Shown here one piece after another: positions 3,785-23,785 of a stretch of 24,000 bases of DNA. The notes under the pieces were generated by a model that was given only the letters and a program-made list of their open reading frames with translations, ran no database searches and had not been told where the DNA came from. The translations under genes and the position numbers were made by a program. The first letter of the stretch is position 1. Every line of letters begins with the position of its first letter. This DNA comes from Acidimicrobiia bacterium (GTDB lineage Bacteria > Actinomycetota > Acidimicrobiia > Spongiisociales > UBA5794), in assembly GCA_029934555.1 (NCBI GenBank), contig JAOZMA010000001.1:2259-26258 (forward strand). Reading direction: 5' to 3'.

Positions 3785-3793
3785 GAGCGGAGA

Positions 3794-3849
3794 GCTAACA
3801 GCTCACAGCTCCTAGCCGACAGCTCACAGCTCACAGCCAACAGCCAGGA
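3794..3849. repeat. Tandem heptamer array, 8 units (GCTAACA GCTCACA GCTCCTA GCCGACA GCTCACA GCTCACA GCCAACA GCCAGGA)
   Basis: Read directly from the sequence. It begins 10 nt after the epimerase TAG (3782-3784). In cyclic register the core is ACAGC. Confidence 0.9.
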
Positions 3850-4424
3850 AGGCGTTGGCGTTCGAGGCCCACGAGCAACAATCCTCGCTGTCCGCTGTCC
3901 GCTGTCCGCTGTCCGCTGTCTGCTGTCTGCTGTCTGCTGTCTGCTGTCTGCTGTCTGCTGTCTGCTGTCCGCTCCAAGTCTTCGACCGTCTTCGGCCGGT
4001 CTTCCTTCAACAGCTTCGACAGTGCCCTGTCGGTGAGGATCCTGCCATTCGTCCGGCATCCCGGGCAGCAGTTGGTCTCTCGAACTCCGGGAACGATCCG
4101 CTGGATCGGCACCTCGCACTTCGGACACGGCTGTCCGAACTTGCCGTGCACGGCCATGTCCGGGTGGAACGCGGTGACCTTCGTCGGGAAACCATCACCC
4201 GTCTCGGCTATCCGAATTCCGGTCCATTCTGCGAGCGTGTCACCCGTCGCTTCGAAGAGATGCTCGGCCTCTTCGGCGTGTGCCGCTCGCGACCGAGGCG
4301 TCGATCGGCGGATCATAGGTACGGAGCACCGAGACGCTGCGAACCCGAACCCCGGTCAACATCTCACCAACGACCCGCGTTCGAAGAGCGTGGAGATAGC
4401 CTCGATCTCAGGAAGTCCAGGCAT
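3831..4424 (-). pseudogene. Fpg/Nei-family DNA glycosylase remnant (N-terminal catalytic peptide + in-frame TGA + C-terminal zinc-finger part; central domains missing)
   Basis: The minus frame from ATG 4424 reads MPGLPEIEAISTLFERGSLVRC, resembling the Fpg N-terminus MPELPEVE. An in-frame TGA follows at 4358-4356. After 13 more codons comes the track ORF (4316..3831), which holds the Fpg/Nei zinc finger and tail: [14 protein letters not shown]...[22 protein letters not shown]. About 145 codons run from the ATG to that tail, versus roughly 270 in full-length family members. The ORF then runs on through the heptamer array. Confidence 0.55.
3887..3970. repeat. Tandem heptamer array, 12 units (GCTGTCC x4, GCTGTCT x7, GCTGTCC x1)
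   Basis: Read directly; 84 bp of strict 7-nt periodicity. The core GCTGT is the reverse complement of the ACAGC core of the 3794-3849 array, so the two arrays are quasi-inverted (5 of 7 positions per unit can pair). On the minus strand it is translated as (TADSRQQ)2(TADSGQR)2 at the tail of the Fpg-like ORF. Confidence 0.95.
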
Positions 4425-4439
4425 GCCAAAGTCGCCGGA

Positions 4440-4527
4440 CTCCAGTCGCCAGTCCCCAGTCCGAGATACGCACCGGCCTTCCGCTGCGGGCCCTTTTTCC
4501 CTTGCGTCTGGTGACTGGGGACTGGTG
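4440..4527. repeat. Inverted heptamer arrays (CTCCAGT CGCCAGT CCCCAGT ... TCTGGTG ACTGGGG ACTGGTG) forming a long stem-loop; possible terminator of cofE
   Basis: Left array 4440-4460, right array 4507-4527. A perfect 13-bp stem pairs CCAGTCCCCAGTC (4449-4461) with GACTGGGGACTGG (4513-4525). An inner 5-bp helix pairs ACGCA (4467-4471) with TGCGT (4503-4507). The right array ends 2 nt from the cofE stop (4530-4532, minus strand). No U-tract follows on the minus strand. Confidence 0.7.
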
Positions 4528-4529
4528 TC

Positions 4530-5225
4530 TCATCGGAACATGTCTTCTTCTGGGGGTCTTACTAGATCGGTTGCTCGTCCTTCACCTGTCAGATCGAGGC
4601 CGCGGACGACGGCTGCGGGGATCTGGTCGGACTTGCCCATGACGAGGTCTGCCGCCGCTGCGATCTCATCGACGATCGCGATCTCGGTGACGTTCATCGT
4701 GCGTCCCCGGGCATCCGTCTCACCGCGCAGATCGAGGATCGCCGGGAGCCCTGAGACACCGATAGCGACGTCGACGAGGCCGCGCCGCCACGGGCGGCCG
4801 AAGGTGTCTGTGATCACGACGGCGATCGAGGCGCCCAACGCACGTTCGATACGAAGCCGGATCCGATGCGCCGACCGGTCGGGGTCGACGGGGAGGAGGA
4901 CAGCCCATCCGTCTTCCACATTGGAACGATCGACCCCGGCATTAGCACAGATGAACCCGTGCTCGGTCTGTGCGATGAGAAGATCGCCGCGGCGTCTCAG
5001 AATCGATCGAGCTTCCCGTTCGGCGAGTTCCCGGTAGGCACGATCATCGGCAGCTTGCTCGATCCGGCCTTCGGCCTTGGAGACCACCTTGTGAGTGATG
5101 ACCACGATGTCGCGATCGGTCAGCGTGATCTTCGAGGTCGCGAGGCCGTCGACGATGAGCGCCGCAAGATCGTCGCCGGGGGCAACCTCGGGTATCCCGA
5201 CAATCGGGTGGAGCTCGATGCTCAT
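4530..5225 (-). CDS. cofE: Coenzyme F420-0:L-glutamate ligase (CofE domain only)
   Basis: Motifs THKVVSKAEGR, ICANAGVDRSN, ITDTFGRPWRRG. I prefer ATG 5225 (MSIELHP...), which overlaps the cofD stop as ATGA. The track start at 5246 is the alternative. Confidence 0.85.
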   Translation of the reverse strand: MSIELHPIVGIPEVAPGDDLAALIVDGLATSKITLTDRDIVVITHKVVSKAEGRIEQAADDRAYRELAEREARSILRRRGDLLIAQTEHGFICANAGVDRSNVEDGWAVLLPVDPDRSAHRIRLRIERALGASIAVVITDTFGRPWRRGLVDVAIGVSGLPAILDLRGETDARGRTMNVTEIAIVDEIAAAADLVMGKSDQIPAAVVRGLDLTGEGRATDLVRPPEEDMFR

Positions 5226-6184: not shown

Positions 6185-8975
6185 GTCATCTCCGGAGGGC
6201 GCACGCCCAGTATCAATCGCGGCCGTGATCATCGCTCGACGCGATGCCGATCTGCCAGCGACCATCGAATCGGTCCGTCGCCAAGTGTACGAAACACAGC
6301 GGATCATCGTGGTCGGTGGTGACAAGGACGCGCGCCGGGTCGCTTCTGACAACGGTGTCGAGTGGATAACGAGTGTCGCCGGCGTGATAGAGACCTGTGG
6401 CGACGTCACCCATATGTGGTTCGTCCTGGACGGAGTACGCGCTCGGCCGGACGCTCTCGGTGCGCTGGTTCGTGGCCAGGCACGCCTTGATGCCTCGGTG
6501 GCCGGATCAAAGATCCTCGATGAAAAGAACCCCGACCGGTTGCTCTCTGTCGGATACGCGACCGACGTATTCGAGACGCCGTACACGGGATTCGACGAGG
6601 ATGAACTCGACCAAGGTCAGTACGACGTTGTTCGCGATGTTGCTGCCGTCGGTGGGCAGTCGACACTCATGCGAATGGACCTTGCCCGGGGCCTCGGCGG
6701 TCCGGACACTGCGATGGCGCCGGTTGCGGCAGCCGTCGACTTCTGCCAGAGAGCACGTCTCCGGGGCGCACGCGTCGTGGCGATTCCCTCATCAGAGGTG
6801 CTGGCCCACAACGACCATGACGAACTCGATCGATGGAGTGAGCGCGCCGGACGCATCCGGGCCATGATCAAGGTCTACGGGCCACTGACGCTGTTCTGGG
6901 CACTCCCGATGGCCTTTCTCTCCGGTTTCGCTCAGTCCTTCCTGTCGCTCTTCCTGGGACGTTGGCGGTTCTTCGAGTGGATCCGGGCGTGGCTGTGGAA
7001 CCTGGTGAAACTGCCGAACACGCTCCATGAGCGTCACGCCGCGCGAAAGGGGCGAGTCGTCGGTGACGCCGAGCTCTTCAGATATCAGATCAGCGGTTCC
7101 GTCGCCCTCAAATCCGTTGTAACGGAGTTGTCAGATCGGATCCGACGGAGGCTCCCGGGAGAAGACCAGTTCTCGGTCGAGGCAGTCGGCGAAGAGCTCA
7201 GACGGCCATCGTTCATCGTTGGAGCGGTCGCGCTGCTGTTCGTTCTTCTCGCTACCCGAAGCATCTGGTCCGTTGGTTTGCCGGCGATCGGGTTCAGCCT
7301 GCCGTTCCCGGATTCGGGGCCCGGAGCCATTTCGGCGTATGCCGGGGGTTGGAACCCGGCGGGTCTTGGATCCGTAGAACCGCTCCGACCGTTCATCGCC
7401 CTCGCGGGTCTGATCCAAACCATCCTCTTCGACAATCGACGTCTCGCCGAGTACATCTTGACCGTAGGGTCGTGGCTCGTCGGGATATGGGGCGTCGTCC
7501 GCCTGCTGCGCACCTGGAGCATCCGTGCGGTCGCCGGGACCCTCGCGGGGATCGTGTACGTCGCCGGCCCCGCCGCACAGGCAGTGGCCCAAGAGACGGC
7601 GGTTGGGGTCGCCATCGTCATCGGACTGATCCCCTGGTCCATGCGATTTGCTCTCGCTCCTTTCCCGGCCTCGTGGGGTGCGAGAGTCGGACGAATCACG
7701 GCCGTCGCGATCCTCGCCGGCCTCGCTGCGATGCTCGCACCGCTCACGCTCGCGATCCCGGTAGCCGCTTTGCTCATATGGGCCCTCCTCAACTTCACCG
7801 ACGGCACCTTGTGGCGAGCGTTCGGTATCTCGCTTGGGGGAGCTGTCCTCGCTGTTCCACTGCTCTTTCCCTGGCTGGGAACCGCAGATCTGTATCGCTT
7901 CGTCACCGACGGCGAGGCCTACTGGTCGCTTCCGATCGTCACCGCCGTCATCGTTGTGATCGCCGCGGCGGCCGTGCTCGTGGCAGCGCCGCCCCGGCTC
8001 GCCCTGATCGCCGCTTGGGGCGCCGTGCTGGCTGCGGTGGGGACGTTCCTTGCCCGATCCGCAGGATTCGGCTCGGGCAGAGAGATCGAGGCCGCAGGGA
8101 TCGCGGTCGTCTCGCTGGGGGTGGGACTCATCGTCGGTCCGTCCTTCGAAGCGATCACGCGTGTTCGTGAAGTAGGCGGGTGGCGGCGCATCGTTAGTGG
8201 AATCGCGGTCGCGGCATCGGTCTTCCTCGTTGCGACCGCCGTCGTCACGGTTCTTGGTGGTCGCGCCGGCTATCCGAGCGATGAATACCGGGAAGCATTC
8301 ACCTTTTCGGCTGCACGGCCGGGTGATCCGACGGCATCGAGGATCCTCGTCCTCGGAGCACCAGGCAATCTTCCCGGTGATGACAGGACCGTCGGCGGAG
8401 CGGCGTATCGTCTTGTTTCTGCGCCGATGCCGGAGTCGTGGGAGACGCACTTGCACACGGCGAGAATCGGCGATGATGCGCTCTCCGACACGCTGGAATC
8501 GATCATCGATGGAGAGACGAAACGCGCTGGTGAGCTGCTTGCTCCGTTCGGCGTTCGGTGGATCGTCATCCTCGGCGAGACCGAGATGGACCCGTTCGCC
8601 GAAGCGTGGAGGACCATCTTCATAGGTCAACTCGACCTGGTGCCCCTCGGTGGGGGACTCGCCAACACAACGTTCGAGAACGAAGCCGAGAACGCTGTTC
8701 GCGCTGTCAGCGCCGAGGGCACGCCGTGGACGCGTGCCGGAACCGGTTATCAGGGGACACGGGAATTCGGGATCGGCCTCGAAGTGAGAGAGAACGCAAA
8801 CGATCGTTGGGGCCCGGGTGACTGGGAGCAGATTGGATGGGCGAACGGGGTAACGGCGGCAACCGGCACGGTTGGATTCGAACCTATCAACAGTCGTCAA
8901 TCGCAAGCCATCGCCGCCGCCGTGTGGCTCGTCGCCCTCACCGGCGTCGCATGGGGCGGGAGGAGATTCGGATGA
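6171..8975 (+). CDS. Large membrane glycosyltransferase: N-terminal GT2-like domain + polytopic membrane region + C-terminal soluble domain
   Basis: 934-aa ORF. The N-terminal ~230 aa has a GT2-like layout (VSIAAVIIARRDAD...TIESVRRQ...WFVLDG). Many hydrophobic helices follow between roughly aa 240-700, then a soluble C-terminal region. The start is uncertain (ATG 6171 or 6183). Either start overlaps the divergent cofD start codon. Confidence 0.8.
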   Translation: MVSFMSSPEGARPVSIAAVIIARRDADLPATIESVRRQVYETQRIIVVGGDKDARRVASDNGVEWITSVAGVIETCGDVTHMWFVLDGVRARPDALGALVRGQARLDASVAGSKILDEKNPDRLLSVGYATDVFETPYTGFDEDELDQGQYDVVRDVAAVGGQSTLMRMDLARGLGGPDTAMAPVAAAVDFCQRARLRGARVVAIPSSEVLAHNDHDELDRWSERAGRIRAMIKVYGPLTLFWALPMAFLSGFAQSFLSLFLGRWRFFEWIRAWLWNLVKLPNTLHERHAARKGRVVGDAELFRYQISGSVALKSVVTELSDRIRRRLPGEDQFSVEAVGEELRRPSFIVGAVALLFVLLATRSIWSVGLPAIGFSLPFPDSGPGAISAYAGGWNPAGLGSVEPLRPFIALAGLIQTILFDNRRLAEYILTVGSWLVGIWGVVRLLRTWSIRAVAGTLAGIVYVAGPAAQAVAQETAVGVAIVIGLIPWSMRFALAPFPASWGARVGRITAVAILAGLAAMLAPLTLAIPVAALLIWALLNFTDGTLWRAFGISLGGAVLAVPLLFPWLGTADLYRFVTDGEAYWSLPIVTAVIVVIAAAAVLVAAPPRLALIAAWGAVLAAVGTFLARSAGFGSGREIEAAGIAVVSLGVGLIVGPSFEAITRVREVGGWRRIVSGIAVAASVFLVATAVVTVLGGRAGYPSDEYREAFTFSAARPGDPTASRILVLGAPGNLPGDDRTVGGAAYRLVSAPMPESWETHLHTARIGDDALSDTLESIIDGETKRAGELLAPFGVRWIVILGETEMDPFAEAWRTIFIGQLDLVPLGGGLANTTFENEAENAVRAVSAEGTPWTRAGTGYQGTREFGIGLEVRENANDRWGPGDWEQIGWANGVTAATGTVGFEPINSRQSQAIAAAVWLVALTGVAWGGRRFG

Positions 8976-11008: not shown

Positions 11009-11100
11009 AGTCGCCAGTCGCCATCTACCAGCAAGAACCCGAAGCCTGGTCGGATACCGACGATCGAGTACGGAGTACGGAGTACGGAATACTGGCTACT
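11009..11100. repeat. Heptamer-periodic intergenic tract: AGTCGCC x2 (11009-11022) ... GAGTACG x3, GAATACT, GGCTACT (11066-11100)
   Basis: Read directly. The first unit starts 1 nt after the TGA at 11006-11008. AGTCGCCAGTC also occurs in the 4440-4460 array. A small hairpin GTCGG-ATA-CCGAC lies between the two blocks. Confidence 0.75.
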
Positions 11101-17301: not shown

Positions 17302-18545
17302 ATTATGACATTGCTGATCCGGGGTTGGCTTCTGAGGGTCATCGGAGGATCGCGTGGGCGGATCGGCGGATGCCGGTTCTTGCTGTGATTCGGGAGCGGT
17401 TCGAGGCTGACAAGCCGTTGGATGGTGTGCGGGTCGCGGCGTGTATGCATGTGACGTCTGAGACGGCGGTGTTGATGTACGCGTTGCGTGCCGGTGGTGC
17501 GTCGGTTGTGTTGTGTGCGTCGAATCCGTTGTCGACTCAGGATGATGTGGCTGCGGCGCTCGTTGAGGACGGTATCCCGGTGTATGCGGTGCGTGGCGAG
17601 GATTCGGATACGTTCTACGAGCACATCAACGCGATTCTGGATACGGAGCCGCATCTGGTGTTCGATGACGGGGCGGATACGACGACGGTGTTGCATCGGG
17701 AGCGGAAGGATCAGGCGATCCTTGGTGGTTTGGAGGAGACAACAACCGGGGTGTTGCGCCTGAGGGCGATGGCTGCGAATGGCGTGTTGCGGTATCCGGT
17801 GGTTGCGGTGAACGATTCCGCGACGAAGCATCTGTTCGACAATCGTCACGGCACGGGCCAGTCGTCTCTTGATGGGATCCTGCGGGCGTCGAATATCCTG
17901 TTCGCGGGTCGTACGGTGGTTGTTGCGGGGTTCGGTGACTGTGGTTGGGGTGTTGCTCGTCGGGCAGCCGGTTTGGGTGCGAGTGTGGTCGTGATCGAGG
18001 TCGATCCGATCCGGGCGCTGTCTGCTGCGATGGAGGGGTATCGGGTGATGACGGCTGCTGAGGCTGCTCCTGTTGGTGACGTGTTCATCACGGTGACTGG
18101 AGACATCCACATCTTCCGGCCCGAGCATTTCGTCGTGATGAAGGACAACGTGATCCTGGCGAACGCCGGGCACTTCGATGTGGAGCTCGATCTGAAGGGT
18201 CTTCGGGAGATGGCGGTCGCGAGCCGTGAGATCCGTGAGAATCTCGTCGAGTTCGAACTCGCCGACGGACGACGGATCATCGTCGTTGCTGAAGGTCGGC
18301 TTGTAAACCTGTCTGCGGCGGAGGGTCATCCTGCTGATGTGATGGACATGTCGTTCGCCGATCAGGCGCTCGCAGCGGAATGGCTCATCGACGTCGGTGA
18401 CGATCTCGCACCCGACGTGTACGTGCTGCCACACGAACTCGACGAATCCGTCGCCAGACTCAAACTCGAATCGATGGGCGCCTCACTAGAGACCCTGACA
18501 GAAGAACAAGCCAAATACCTCGAGTCCTGGGAAGAAGGAACGTAG
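17298..18545 (+). CDS. ahcY: Adenosylhomocysteinase
   Basis: 415 aa. ATG overlaps the upstream stop as ATGA. Motifs CNPLSTQD-like (CASNPLSTQDDVAAAL), ETTTGV, NDSATKHLFDNRHGTGQS, NAD loop AGFGDCGWG, and GHFDVE. Confidence 0.95.
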   Translation: MNYDIADPGLASEGHRRIAWADRRMPVLAVIRERFEADKPLDGVRVAACMHVTSETAVLMYALRAGGASVVLCASNPLSTQDDVAAALVEDGIPVYAVRGEDSDTFYEHINAILDTEPHLVFDDGADTTTVLHRERKDQAILGGLEETTTGVLRLRAMAANGVLRYPVVAVNDSATKHLFDNRHGTGQSSLDGILRASNILFAGRTVVVAGFGDCGWGVARRAAGLGASVVVIEVDPIRALSAAMEGYRVMTAAEAAPVGDVFITVTGDIHIFRPEHFVVMKDNVILANAGHFDVELDLKGLREMAVASREIRENLVEFELADGRRIIVVAEGRLVNLSAAEGHPADVMDMSFADQALAAEWLIDVGDDLAPDVYVLPHELDESVARLKLESMGASLETLTEEQAKYLESWEEGT

Positions 18546-18546
18546 A

Positions 18547-18626
18547 AGAGCTGCCAGCTACCAGCCGCCAGCTTCCGAAGTCGGACTGGCAGCTGGTAGC
18601 TGGGCGCTGGTAGCTCTCTTTCTGTC
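18547..18626 (+). terminator. Long imperfect hairpin built from inverted heptamer units (GCTGCCA GCTACCA GCCGCCA GCTTCCG / CTGGCAG CTGGTAG CTGGGCG CTGGTAG), followed by a pyrimidine/T-rich tract
   Basis: Starts 2-5 nt after the ahcY TAG (18543-18545). Segment 18557-18578 pairs with 18581-18600, with one mismatch and one bulge. Alternative registers exist because both arms are tandem arrays. It is followed by CTCTCTTTCTGTC. Confidence 0.5.
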
Positions 18627-19940: not shown

Positions 19941-20591
19941 ATGAGAAGATTGATTGTTGTCGACGATGTTCCACTCTTTCGAGCAGGGCTTGCCTCAGCG
20001 CTGAGAGATGCTGGATTCGAGGTTGTCGCCGAGTCGGGTGACGCCGAAGGCGCCGTCACCGCTGCTGAGGAGCATCAGCCGGATCTGGTCCTGCTCGACA
20101 TCCTGATGCCGGGTATCTCTGGTCTCGAAGTCGTCGAGAAGATCAGCGCCGTCGCTCCTGGAGCACAGGTGATCATGCTCACGGCAAGCGAGTCGGAAGA
20201 GGATCTGCTCGTCGGAGTCAAGGCAGGCGTTCGGGGTTACGTCACGAAGGACGCCCCGTTCGATGCTCTGGTCGCGGCCCTCGACGCTGTTGAGGGTGGT
20301 GGAGCTGCCGTATCGCCGAACATGGCCGGAAAGCTCCTCGACGTGACCCGTCAGCTCCTGCGTCACCAGGAGCTTCTGCAGTCGAGGAAGCCGGTGTTGA
20401 CCGGACGGGAACTCGAGGTTCTCCAACTCGTTGCACAAGGACAGACGAGCCGCGAGATCGGCGTTCTTCTGTTCATCTCCGAGAACACCGTGAAGAACCA
20501 CATCAGGAACATCCTCGACAAGCTAGGCCTCCACTCAAGAAACGAAGCAGTGCTGTACGCCGTGCGCGAGGACCTGATCAGTATCTCTTGA
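19941..20591 (+). CDS. NarL/LuxR-family two-component response regulator (no adjacent kinase)
   Basis: Receiver domain (VVDDVPL, DLVLLDILMPG, LTASE, KAGVRGYVTKD) and LuxR HTH (LTGRELEVLQLVAQGQTSREIG...SENTVKNHIRNILDKLG). Confidence 0.9.
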   Translation: MRRLIVVDDVPLFRAGLASALRDAGFEVVAESGDAEGAVTAAEEHQPDLVLLDILMPGISGLEVVEKISAVAPGAQVIMLTASESEEDLLVGVKAGVRGYVTKDAPFDALVAALDAVEGGGAAVSPNMAGKLLDVTRQLLRHQELLQSRKPVLTGRELEVLQLVAQGQTSREIGVLLFISENTVKNHIRNILDKLGLHSRNEAVLYAVREDLISIS

Positions 20592-20631
20592 GTAGATCAG
20601 TAGATCAGTAGATCAGTAGATCAGTAGATCA
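20592..20631. repeat. Perfect tandem octamer array (GTAGATCA) x5
   Basis: Read directly. It starts 1 nt after the regulator TGA (20589-20591). Every unit contains GATC. Confidence 0.97.
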
Positions 20632-20653
20632 GACTGCCCGACAGCTCGGTGTT

Positions 20654-21007
20654 TCACGATCGAACTCGACGCCTGAGTCCCGAGAGCATCCGCATGATCT
20701 CGGCCAACTCAACGAGGTAGCGGTCGGCGGTGTTTCCGTGTAGTTGTCCTAGAGCCTTCGCCAGGATCAGGTGGTTCTCAACCTCCGCCGCTGATCCGAT
20801 TGCGATTGTCAGGAATCTGCGGAATTCCTTCACCGACTCGCGTCCTGCGCCCTCGGCGATGTTCGCCGGGACCGACTCCGCCGCCCGCGTGAGTTGATCC
20901 CCGAGACCGAAGCGATGGCGACCTTGGAACATGTCGACTTCACCGTGAATGCTGATAGCCAGTTGGTGCGATCGTTGCCAGACGGTCAGTCTCTTGAAGT
21001 CTCTCAT
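20654..21007 (-). CDS. Four-helix-bundle protein (23S rRNA intervening-sequence protein / Avd family, TIGR02436 / PF05635 type)
   Basis: 117 aa. FKRLTVWQRSHQLAISIH...LGDQLTRAAESVPANIAEGAGRES.KEFRRFLTIAIGSAAEVENHLILA matches the family pattern (W-Q, Q..RAa.S...NIAEG, f..fL.iA.GS..E). It is the only gene between the inverted octamer arrays and is antisense to both flanking genes. Confidence 0.8.
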   Translation of the reverse strand: MRDFKRLTVWQRSHQLAISIHGEVDMFQGRHRFGLGDQLTRAAESVPANIAEGAGRESVKEFRRFLTIAIGSAAEVENHLILAKALGQLHGNTADRYLVELAEIMRMLSGLRRRVRS

Positions 21008-21060
21008 TCCCCAGTCGTACCAAAGGTCAGGACCAGTTGATAGACCTCTGACTGCCGTGC

Positions 21061-21084
21061 TGATCTACTGATCTACTGATCTAC
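21061..21084. repeat. Perfect tandem octamer array (TGATCTAC) x3, exact reverse complement of the 20592-20631 unit
   Basis: Read directly. It ends 50 nt upstream of the secA ATG and is bracketed by the 9-nt direct repeat ACTGCCGTG (21051-21059 and 21083-21091). Confidence 0.97.
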
Positions 21085-21133
21085 TGCCGTGAGGCCCCCA
21101 ACAAACTGCATACGCCCCGTAGTATTCGGCTCC

Positions 21134-23785
<2,652 letters not shown>

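Follow-up and report, generated by a model that had tools for sequence, protein, structure and literature searches.

What is a gene of the four-helix-bundle (4HB) family doing between two complementary tandem arrays, in the short interval that separates a response regulator gene from secA? The question is raised by a stretch of 24,000 nt from an Acidimicrobiia bacterium (contig JAOZMA010000001.1; hereafter, the window means this whole stretch), in which an array of five GTAGATCA octamers, a small gene on the minus strand and an array of three TGATCTAC octamers follow one another at positions 20592-21084. An earlier note made from the window alone had read this interval as a stem-loop resembling the intervening sequences (IVSs) of 23S rRNA, placed outside rRNA together with a 4HB gene and possibly mobilised with a hairpin. 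That reading is upheld by comparison with close relatives, with the 4HB family at large and with known IVSs; the impression that it describes a peculiarity of this locus is not, since the architecture is common to the family. The best explanation, and in our judgment a probable one, is a repeat-bounded 4HB cassette, akin to the IVSs of 23S rRNA that carry an open reading frame (ORF), lying between protein genes.

Arrays are inherited and exchanged with the 4HB gene

Re-reading of the window confirmed the array coordinates of the earlier note, the abutment of the left array on the regulator stop codon, the 429 nt between the two arrays and the 50 nt from the end of the right array to the secA start codon. 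Tandem Repeats Finder (TRF) reports both arrays with a period of 8 and 100% matches (5.2 and 3.4 copies), and the 16-mer made of two units has six matches in the window, all inside the two arrays, where 0.00 would be expected from 100 shuffles. The two arrays are perfectly complementary across 27 nt in each of two registers, and the unit counts of five and three allow three registers of at least 24 bp, so that the perfect 24-bp duplex in three registers proposed earlier holds. The sole ORF of at least 60 aa that fills the interval is the minus-strand frame at 20654-21007.

The exact 4HB protein of the window is encoded on at least 17 metagenome contigs (L-numbers designate the loci and contigs of relatives fetched for comparison). 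In spanning contigs of strains at least 99% identical to the window, the left array comprises 3, 5, 5, 7 or 11 copies, and the right array has three units in all ten near-identical contigs. Orthologues (L011-L017; 84, 76 and 75% identical as proteins) are found at the same position on the same strand, and they retain GTAGATCA/GTGGATCA units right after the regulator stop codon and TGATCTAC-type units ahead of secA, where the array numbers two to five units and includes the degenerate forms TGGTCTAC, TGACCTAC and TGCTCTAC. A check for relatives carrying the gene without flanking arrays found that these orthologues, at 75-84% identity, all keep both. Synonymous divergence among the orthologues is ~0.8-1.5, and the trailer and outer spacers have diverged even though the arrays are kept; the 4HB leader is ~80% conserved over ~45 nt (by eye), whereas the 22-nt trailer is not.

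Two types of cassette are found in this interval. In type A, to which the window belongs, the 4HB gene lies opposite to secA and the units are GTAGATCA; in type B, which occupies the same interval in L102, L103, L188 and L189, the gene is co-directional with secA and the units are GTAGCCGA/GTAGCGGA. The regulator is 88-96% identical among relatives with either cassette type, and type A and type B 4HB proteins are 62-68% identical; inversion in situ was rejected as the cause of the two orientations, because the proteins share no more identity than that. The type A relative L015 and the type B relatives L102 and L188 have SecA proteins that are 97-98% identical and regulator and HPF proteins that are 95-97% identical, as against 4HB proteins that are 64-65% identical and encoded in opposite orientations. 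At the same time, the SecA of L015 is only 87-88% identical to those of the window and L011. These similarities indicate that cassette type does not track the host tree. In L015 and L102, the one A/B pair that was aligned as DNA to map breakpoints, ~97% identity is lost one unit into the left array and regained directly past the right array, 50 nt ahead of the secA ATG. The left array of L015 is chimeric, with one GTAGCCGA unit followed by GTAGATCA units. Judging from the breakpoints and the chimeric array, the array-gene-array block behaves as a module exchanged at its arrays. In every cassette lineage compared, both arms match each other, and the units differ between lineages. The arrays belong to the gene and not to the site: they are inherited with it, exchange is bounded by them, and their length varies.

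More distant relatives show the site in other states, and both the empty site and the array-only hairpin that the earlier note had proposed to look for were found. Among relatives with 60-73% SecA identity, a bare spacer of ~60 nt separates the regulator from secA in L021 and L022; L019 carries no gene but a hairpin built from AGCTCAC/AGCTTTC heptamers, its loop being ~85 nt; and in L020, hpf lies directly ahead of secA. The adjacency of hpf and secA, which the earlier note gave for mycobacteria, is indeed seen in many Actinobacteria (L018-L097), including Gordonia, Cutibacterium and Bifidobacterium. Only this Acidimicrobiia group and a few others have a NarL-type regulator between hpf and secA.

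Paralogues at other positions are likewise bracketed, as the earlier note's reading would have it. The paralogue P0006 (L098/L099) follows a gene of the tRNA synthetase family (Pfam tRNA-synt_1b); upstream of it lie GTAGAGCA/GTAGCCAA units, and an array of TGATCTAC units, x7 or, in L099, x4, starts in its stop codon. The paralogue P0008 (L100/L101) lies between FKBP and ABC-transporter genes with AGTAYCA and TACTTGC heptamers.

Several independent short-read contigs (L002-L010) end in or beside the left array. The arrays thus fragment assemblies, and copy numbers in draft genomes are lower bounds. In L001 (JGI 3300005098), the regulator has lost its final 12 codons (VLYAVREDLISIS) next to a left array of 11 units; a TAG within the array serves as the new stop codon, giving a protein of 204 aa instead of 216 aa. 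This truncation is either a true deletion or an assembly error at the repeat.

Flanking arrays across the 4HB family

To place the locus within its family, metagenome contigs were scanned for 4HB genes, yielding 80 unrelated loci at 37-50% identity, of which 73 had usable flanks. With a threshold of z>=5 for inverted flanks, an inverted repeat between the flanks was present in 47 of the 73 loci and in none of 96 control intervals (Mann-Whitney p=1e-16), the controls being shifted intervals from the same loci that are mostly coding and not matched for intergenic position. The mostly coding nature of the controls is partly offset by comparing proximal with distal sequence, where the density of TRF arrays is 4.5/kb within 200 nt of the ORF versus 0.70/kb beyond 300 nt. 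The arrays have a period of 7 in 43-45 of the 48 arms scored and a period of 8 in 2-3. Their placement is also regular: the 3' array begins a median of 7 nt past the 4HB stop codon, often overlapping it, and the 5' array finishes a median of 41 nt before the start codon. Similar proteins carry similar units (rho -0.21, permutation p=0.001), and array-only sites use the unit "dialect" of the cassette at the same locus (mean unit distance 1.72 versus 2.97, p=3e-7). The same array-bracketed pattern occurs on annotated cyanobacterial plasmids. Inverted array flanks are the usual architecture of the 4HB family, shared by most of the members sampled.

One of the plasmid loci, L187 of Pseudanabaena galeata plasmid pPg_01, has its 4HB gene between cas6 and cas4, with ~17 AAAAGCT units upstream and ~10 AAAAGCC units downstream.

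Relationship to 23S rRNA intervening sequences

Two of the 4HB ORFs lie inside large-subunit (LSU) rRNA, namely L181, one of the 80 metagenome loci, which aligns to the helix-45 region, and L186 from a plasmid or chromid of Azospirillum lipoferum. Both are sense to the rRNA and have inverted GGGGCGA or GAGGACG arrays on their flanks. Copies in rRNA are a small minority of the sampled 4HB loci. The IVS of Coxiella has a 28-bp terminal stem and two to three GACAGAT heptamers, variable among strains, and is cut inside this stem by RNase III (PMC4990558). The occurrence of the same array-ORF-array build inside rRNA shows that rRNA IVSs and dispersed cassettes are the same kind of object. The IVS of Leptospira is another IVS of 23S rRNA that contains an ORF.

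The closest comparison is with the helix-45 IVS of Coxiella burnetii (S23p), with which the cassette of the window shares its protein family and an ORF enclosed by a terminal stem. Short tandem repeats also stand at the ends of the IVSs of Coxiella (strain-variable heptamers; PMC4990558) and of L181 and L186 (heptamer-like arrays), and total size is similar (~430-500 nt). The cassette of the window differs in lying outside rRNA, on the strand opposite to its neighbours, and in having an octamer instead of a heptamer unit. Purifying selection acts on its ORF, in contrast to that of Coxiella, which is reportedly decaying, and excision by RNase III has been shown for rRNA copies and would apply here by homology with them. 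The cassette has terminal inverted repeats that can form a long stem around the ORF, with perfect arms of 27 nt; it is not located in rRNA, as Rfam gave no match anywhere in the window and the neighbours are protein genes. We therefore regard the segment 20592-21084 as, in all likelihood, an IVS-type cassette outside rRNA.

The 4HB protein

Assignment of the 117-aa protein to the four-helix-bundle family, made from its pattern in the earlier note, was borne out by profile searches. It matches PF05635 over profile positions 1-106 of 106 (E 3.5e-32; 111.2 bits against a cut-off of 33.8) and TIGR02436 with E 4.7e-33 (113.7 bits against a cut-off of 24), and 16,956 clusters at 50% identity match this one protein. 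An RxxxSxxxNxxE core has been described for the family (PMC3936711); here it corresponds to R41, S45, N49 and E52, the last three being invariant in 31 homologues. The nearest solved structure is that of XCC0516, 2GSC (E 2e-17 with the single sequence and 1e-25 with a profile), and the profile search of the PDB retrieved 2GSC and 2RLD and did not retrieve Avd. Comparison with the orthologues gives dN/dS values of 0.06-0.18, which implies that the protein is under purifying selection; judging from these substitution rates, it is functional in this clade.

Profile searches of the large ORFs in the window found no reverse transcriptase, recombinase or transposase domain, and the gene calls of relatives contain no reverse transcriptase. 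For this locus, PADLOC and PHROGs searches returned nothing and a search of a phage collection gave no match.

The motif GGTAYGAC stands directly 5' of the 4HB start codon in the window (21008-21025, minus strand) and in L098, L100, L102, L188 and L189. Where it is in frame, as in several homologues, it is translated and extends the N-terminus by (M/V)YD; the window has no start codon in frame ahead of it.

Layout of the locus

The features of the interval are collected in Table 1. The regulator, whose TGA stop codon is at 20589-20591, is host context and lies outside the cassette, as is also the case for the hexamer ahead of secA. Read on the strand of the 4HB gene, the left array is the 3' array, (TGATCTAC)x5, and the right array is the 5' array, (GTAGATCA)x3. 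The start of secA is taken as the ATG at 21134, in agreement with the gene calls of relatives (883 aa); the mechanical ORF list starts it at a GTG at 21089. The inner copy of CTGCCGTG (21052-21059) is present only in the lineage of the window and not in the orthologues, and the pair resembles a unit-length duplication from an array being laid down or rebuilt.

Table 1. Features in and around the 4HB cassette, with positions counted from the first nucleotide of the window
Feature	Position	Strand	Remarks
NarL/LuxR-type response regulator gene, 216 aa	19941..20591	+	Pfam Response_reg E 1.4e-26, GerE E 6.1e-21
Left terminal array (GTAGATCA)x5	20592..20631	+	First base directly after regulator stop
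Spacer, 22 nt, left array to 4HB stop codon	20632..20653		Poorly conserved
4HB gene, 117 aa	20654..21007	-	PF05635 / TIGR02436
4HB leader, 53 nt	21008..21060	-	Conserved in orthologues, holds TGGTACGAC
8-bp direct repeat CTGCCGTG	21052-21059 and 21084-21091	+	Encloses exactly three CTGATCTA units
Right terminal array (TGATCTAC)x3	21061..21084	+	Exact reverse complement of left units
-10-like hexamer TAGTAT	21120-21125 (feature 21120..21136)	+	8 nt upstream of secA ATG; host context

RNA folding and transcription

When the RNAs of both strands were folded, as the earlier note had suggested, an array stem of 27-28 bp closed a domain of ~430 nt on each of them, in the minimum free energy (MFE) as well as the centroid structure, with fold z-scores of -4.8 and -4.9. 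The structure does not have the features of an intrinsic terminator: a terminator scan of 20300-21400 found 0 sites, neither arm is followed by a T-run and the loop is 429 nt. A scan of the region for the sigma-70 consensus gave no match.

A TANNNT-like hexamer is located 6-9 nt before the secA ATG in relatives with the cassette (L011, L015, L016, L102) and in relatives without it (L019-L022), the variants being TAGTAT, TATCAT, TATGCT, TAGGAT and CATAAT (the last in L022). Its presence in both groups suggests that secA is probably transcribed, here as well, from a promoter of its own situated downstream of the right array, possibly with a leaderless transcript. The coupling of processing to secA expression, which the earlier note had considered, is then unnecessary. 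For the 4HB gene itself, TGGTACGAC on its strand (plus-strand 21014-21022) lies 6 nt ahead of the ATG and is conserved in the orthologues; it may belong, as an extended -10 element, to a leaderless promoter within the loop.

Two indications concerning strand were set aside. A preference for the plus strand, suggested by A-to-G variants in L011, was dropped because it is not general across 48 cassettes, and how the arrays are oriented with respect to the gene was dismissed as uninformative, because an inverted repeat reads identically on both strands.

Other arrays in the window and its clade

At least four other array sites are present in the window (3793-3973, 4430-4530, 11009-11092 and 18549-18615). 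The short loops ascribed earlier to the other inverted array pairs were found again, with 14 nt at 18549-18608 and 51 nt at 4444-4530.

The hairpin that follows the AdoHcyase gene (18543-18623) consists of AGCTGCC/AGCTACC heptamers in the window and of GTAG-type octamers in L001 (about 8300-8390, reverse strand; 99.2% identical to the window), L011, L015 and L016, and L102 has a longer array pair of the GTAGCGGA type at this site. The swapped segment includes the stop codon of the gene, which is TAG in the window and TGA in the others. These differences between strains show that array-only hairpins are also replaced as whole modules.

The 745-nt interval between the epimerase and F420-ligase genes (3793-4530) holds four arrays. 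Those at 3793-3846 (AGCTCAC/AGCCAAC) and 3887-3973, (GCTGTCY)x12, are not complementary to each other, and a hairpin of AGTCGCC/AGTCCCC units with a 51-nt loop lies at 4430-4530. The AGTCCCC unit is a rotation of CCCCAGT, the heptamer of short tandemly repeated repetitive (STRR) sequence 1, STRR1. A 113-aa minus-strand ORF at 3978-4316 gives a weak, sub-threshold match to zf-FPG_IleRS (E 0.019), and its frame continues into the (GCTGTCY) array. At 11009-11092, two AGTCGCC units and four GAGTACG units stand on either side of a 42-nt spacer; in place of the window's two AGTCGCC units and a variant, L001 carries three AGTCGCC units. Likewise, a mixed pair is found downstream of smpB in contigs L003 and L004, where a CAGTCCC array is followed by a CTGATCTA array. 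Such mixed pairs suggest that arms are shuffled between hairpins.

Proposed explanation and alternatives

In the explanation that we favour, the cassette is ordered as 5' tandem array, ~50-nt leader, 4HB ORF, short trailer and reverse-complement array, with an octamer unit here and a heptamer unit in most relatives. Changes in array length would arise by slippage. Any RNA spanning both arms would pair into a perfect duplex of 24-27 bp, a length that suits RNase III. As there is no terminator after the regulator, read-through from the hpf-regulator operon would produce such an RNA here. RNase III would then cut the duplex as it does in the homologous stems of rRNA IVSs, separating the cassette from the transcripts of its neighbours. 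The 4HB protein, a relative of XCC0516 and Avd, probably binds nucleic acid, possibly the arrays, and if it does bind them it could serve the maintenance or exchange of the cassette.

It should be noted that several observations weigh against this explanation. For about one third of the sampled 4HB genes no inverted flanks could be detected, and the arrays of some (L184, L187) are direct or mixed. If the 4HB transcript starts within the leader, its mRNA carries only one arm. Mismatches in the stems of 48 loci are G.U-compatible in 63 cases and A.C in 54 (p=0.46), so there is no preference for G.U and no comparative signal of strand-specific selection at the RNA level; the arrays could instead act as DNA, for example in recombination or protein binding. 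Searches of the window found no recombinase, transposase or reverse transcriptase near the cassette to account for exchange, and long-lived allelic polymorphism combined with homologous recombination could mimic mobility. We would also like to emphasize that RNase III cleavage, the promoter positions and read-through are all steps that we infer.

The alternative that survives best, which we nevertheless consider unlikely, is that of an autonomous element, in which the 4HB protein acts in trans to create, copy or recombine the arrays and array-only hairpins are gene-less derivatives comparable to MITEs (miniature inverted-repeat transposable elements). It would account for the unit dialect that array-only sites share with the cassette of the same locus (1.72 versus 2.97, p=3e-7), for the use of the cassette's GTAG-octamer family by the hairpin at the AdoHcyase gene in this clade and for the whole array hairpins swapped between strains that are 99.2% identical, and the right array is flanked by an 8-bp direct repeat (CTGCCGTG) as long as the unit. 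However, no catalytic domain is present and the family has no known activity beyond that of Avd as the partner of a reverse transcriptase; gene conversion among arrays or a bias in host slippage could equally produce a shared dialect. Classification as a transposable element or MITE was rejected, as there is no transposase and the sole direct repeat flanks the right array only and not the whole element.

A chance arrangement, with generic terminator or insulator hairpins and an unrelated small gene that came to lie between two half-hairpins, is very improbable and already largely refuted. The other array sites in the window (at least four) and the array-only hairpin in the same interval of L019 are what it would predict, but it does not explain why 47 of 73 unrelated 4HB genes have inverted array flanks compared with 0 of 96 controls, why the arrays switch together with the gene when the cassette type switches, or why paralogues elsewhere are bracketed and the same build recurs inside rRNA.

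Slighter still is the chance of an invertible DNA switch, whereby the 430-bp loop would be turned round by recombination between the arrays, toggling transcription of the 4HB gene or read-through into secA. Both orientations of the 4HB gene do occur at the exact site in close relatives, and perfect inverted repeats of 24-40 bp are available; yet the opposite orientations represent different genes (62-68% identity) and different units and not flipped sequence, a single orientation is seen in all 10 listed contigs with the exact protein and in every type A relative fetched, and searches of the window found no invertase or recombinase gene nearby.

We give hardly any credence to a contingency (phase-variation) locus, in which array copy number would tune the expression of the regulator, the 4HB gene or secA. 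The range of 3-11 units in the left array of strains at least 99% identical to the window would suit it, as would the coincidence of the 11-unit array of L001 with the loss of the last 12 codons of the regulator. Against this, neither array falls within an ORF or a putative core promoter, the array adjoining secA (the right one) keeps three units throughout, and the association of arrays with 4HB genes across the family is left unexplained.

Finally, a role as the Avd-type accessory protein of a diversity-generating retroelement (DGR) has a negligible probability and is refuted for this locus. PF05635 proteins are related to Avd, a member of the same four-helix-bundle superfamily (CDD cd16375; PMC10053308), to which the pentameric XCC0516 is also related. 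However, Avd systems have a reverse transcriptase and none was found in the 24-kb window or in the gene calls of relatives (template and variable repeats were not looked for), no phage match was obtained, and the profile search of the PDB finds 2GSC and 2RLD, not Avd.

Comparison with known repeats and modules

Inverted pairs of heptamers have been described in Xanthomonas (GGGAATC) and paired hepta- or octanucleotide sites in Geobacter (PMC4692102, PMC2700814). Together with those of cyanobacteria, these STRR-type repeats form tandem arrays with units of 7-8 nt between genes, frequently as inverted pairs, variable between strains and unexplained in function (PMC4692102, PMC2700814). The arrays of the cassette share the intergenic position, the inverted pairing and the variable length, but have a unit of 8 nt instead of 7. 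Furthermore, reports on STRR-type repeats link them to no 4HB genes, whereas the arrays of the cassette bracket such a gene and are exchanged with it.

The cassette also resembles integron gene cassettes, MITEs and repetitive extragenic palindromes (REPs) in being a small hairpin-bounded module that is replaceable at a fixed site and has dispersed gene-less hairpin relatives. It differs from them in that there is no integrase or transposase and no sequence similarity to attC or REP, in that its ends are tandem arrays and not unique terminal inverted repeats, and in that no duplication flanks the whole element.

Earlier work had noted heptamers in the IVS of Coxiella and described inverted pairs of heptamers for Xanthomonas and Geobacter. 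In the literature consulted, the coverage of which is incomplete, we found no statement that 4HB genes are generally bracketed by arrays or exchanged as a module; the general link between 4HB genes and arrays was likewise not found stated.

A bolder extension, which we offer tentatively and think rather unlikely to hold in full, is that 4HB genes with inverted arrays of 7-8 nt form a very widespread, unrecognised class of selfish cassettes whose protein would bind, copy or recombine the arrays. The STRR repeats, the GGGAATC pairs of Xanthomonas and the "global regulator sites" of Geobacter would then be gene-less derivatives, and the IVSs of 23S rRNA would be the ~1% of copies that landed in rRNA. 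Its strongest component, that array-only hairpins are gene-less derivatives of 4HB cassettes, is itself a doubtful proposition at present.

Implications

The function of the very large "23S rRNA IVS protein" family has been unexplained since the early 1990s, and the intergenic heptamer repeats (STRR) are an equally old puzzle. This locus and its relatives physically link the two, both inside and outside rRNA, and show that genomes nearly identical elsewhere exchange a module whose borders are marked by the repeats. There is also a practical warning, in that the arrays break short-read assemblies.

"CRISPR association" scores have been published for the 4HB family (PMC3936711, PMC10910872). As a speculation, 4HB genes may have been scored as CRISPR-associated because their flanking arrays resemble CRISPR repeats. 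More generally, the cassette offers an explanation for the presence of 4HB genes within operons, such as cas and restriction-modification loci, apparently without harm, and what was a vague annotation, "four helix bundle protein", becomes an element that has defined ends and can be tested.

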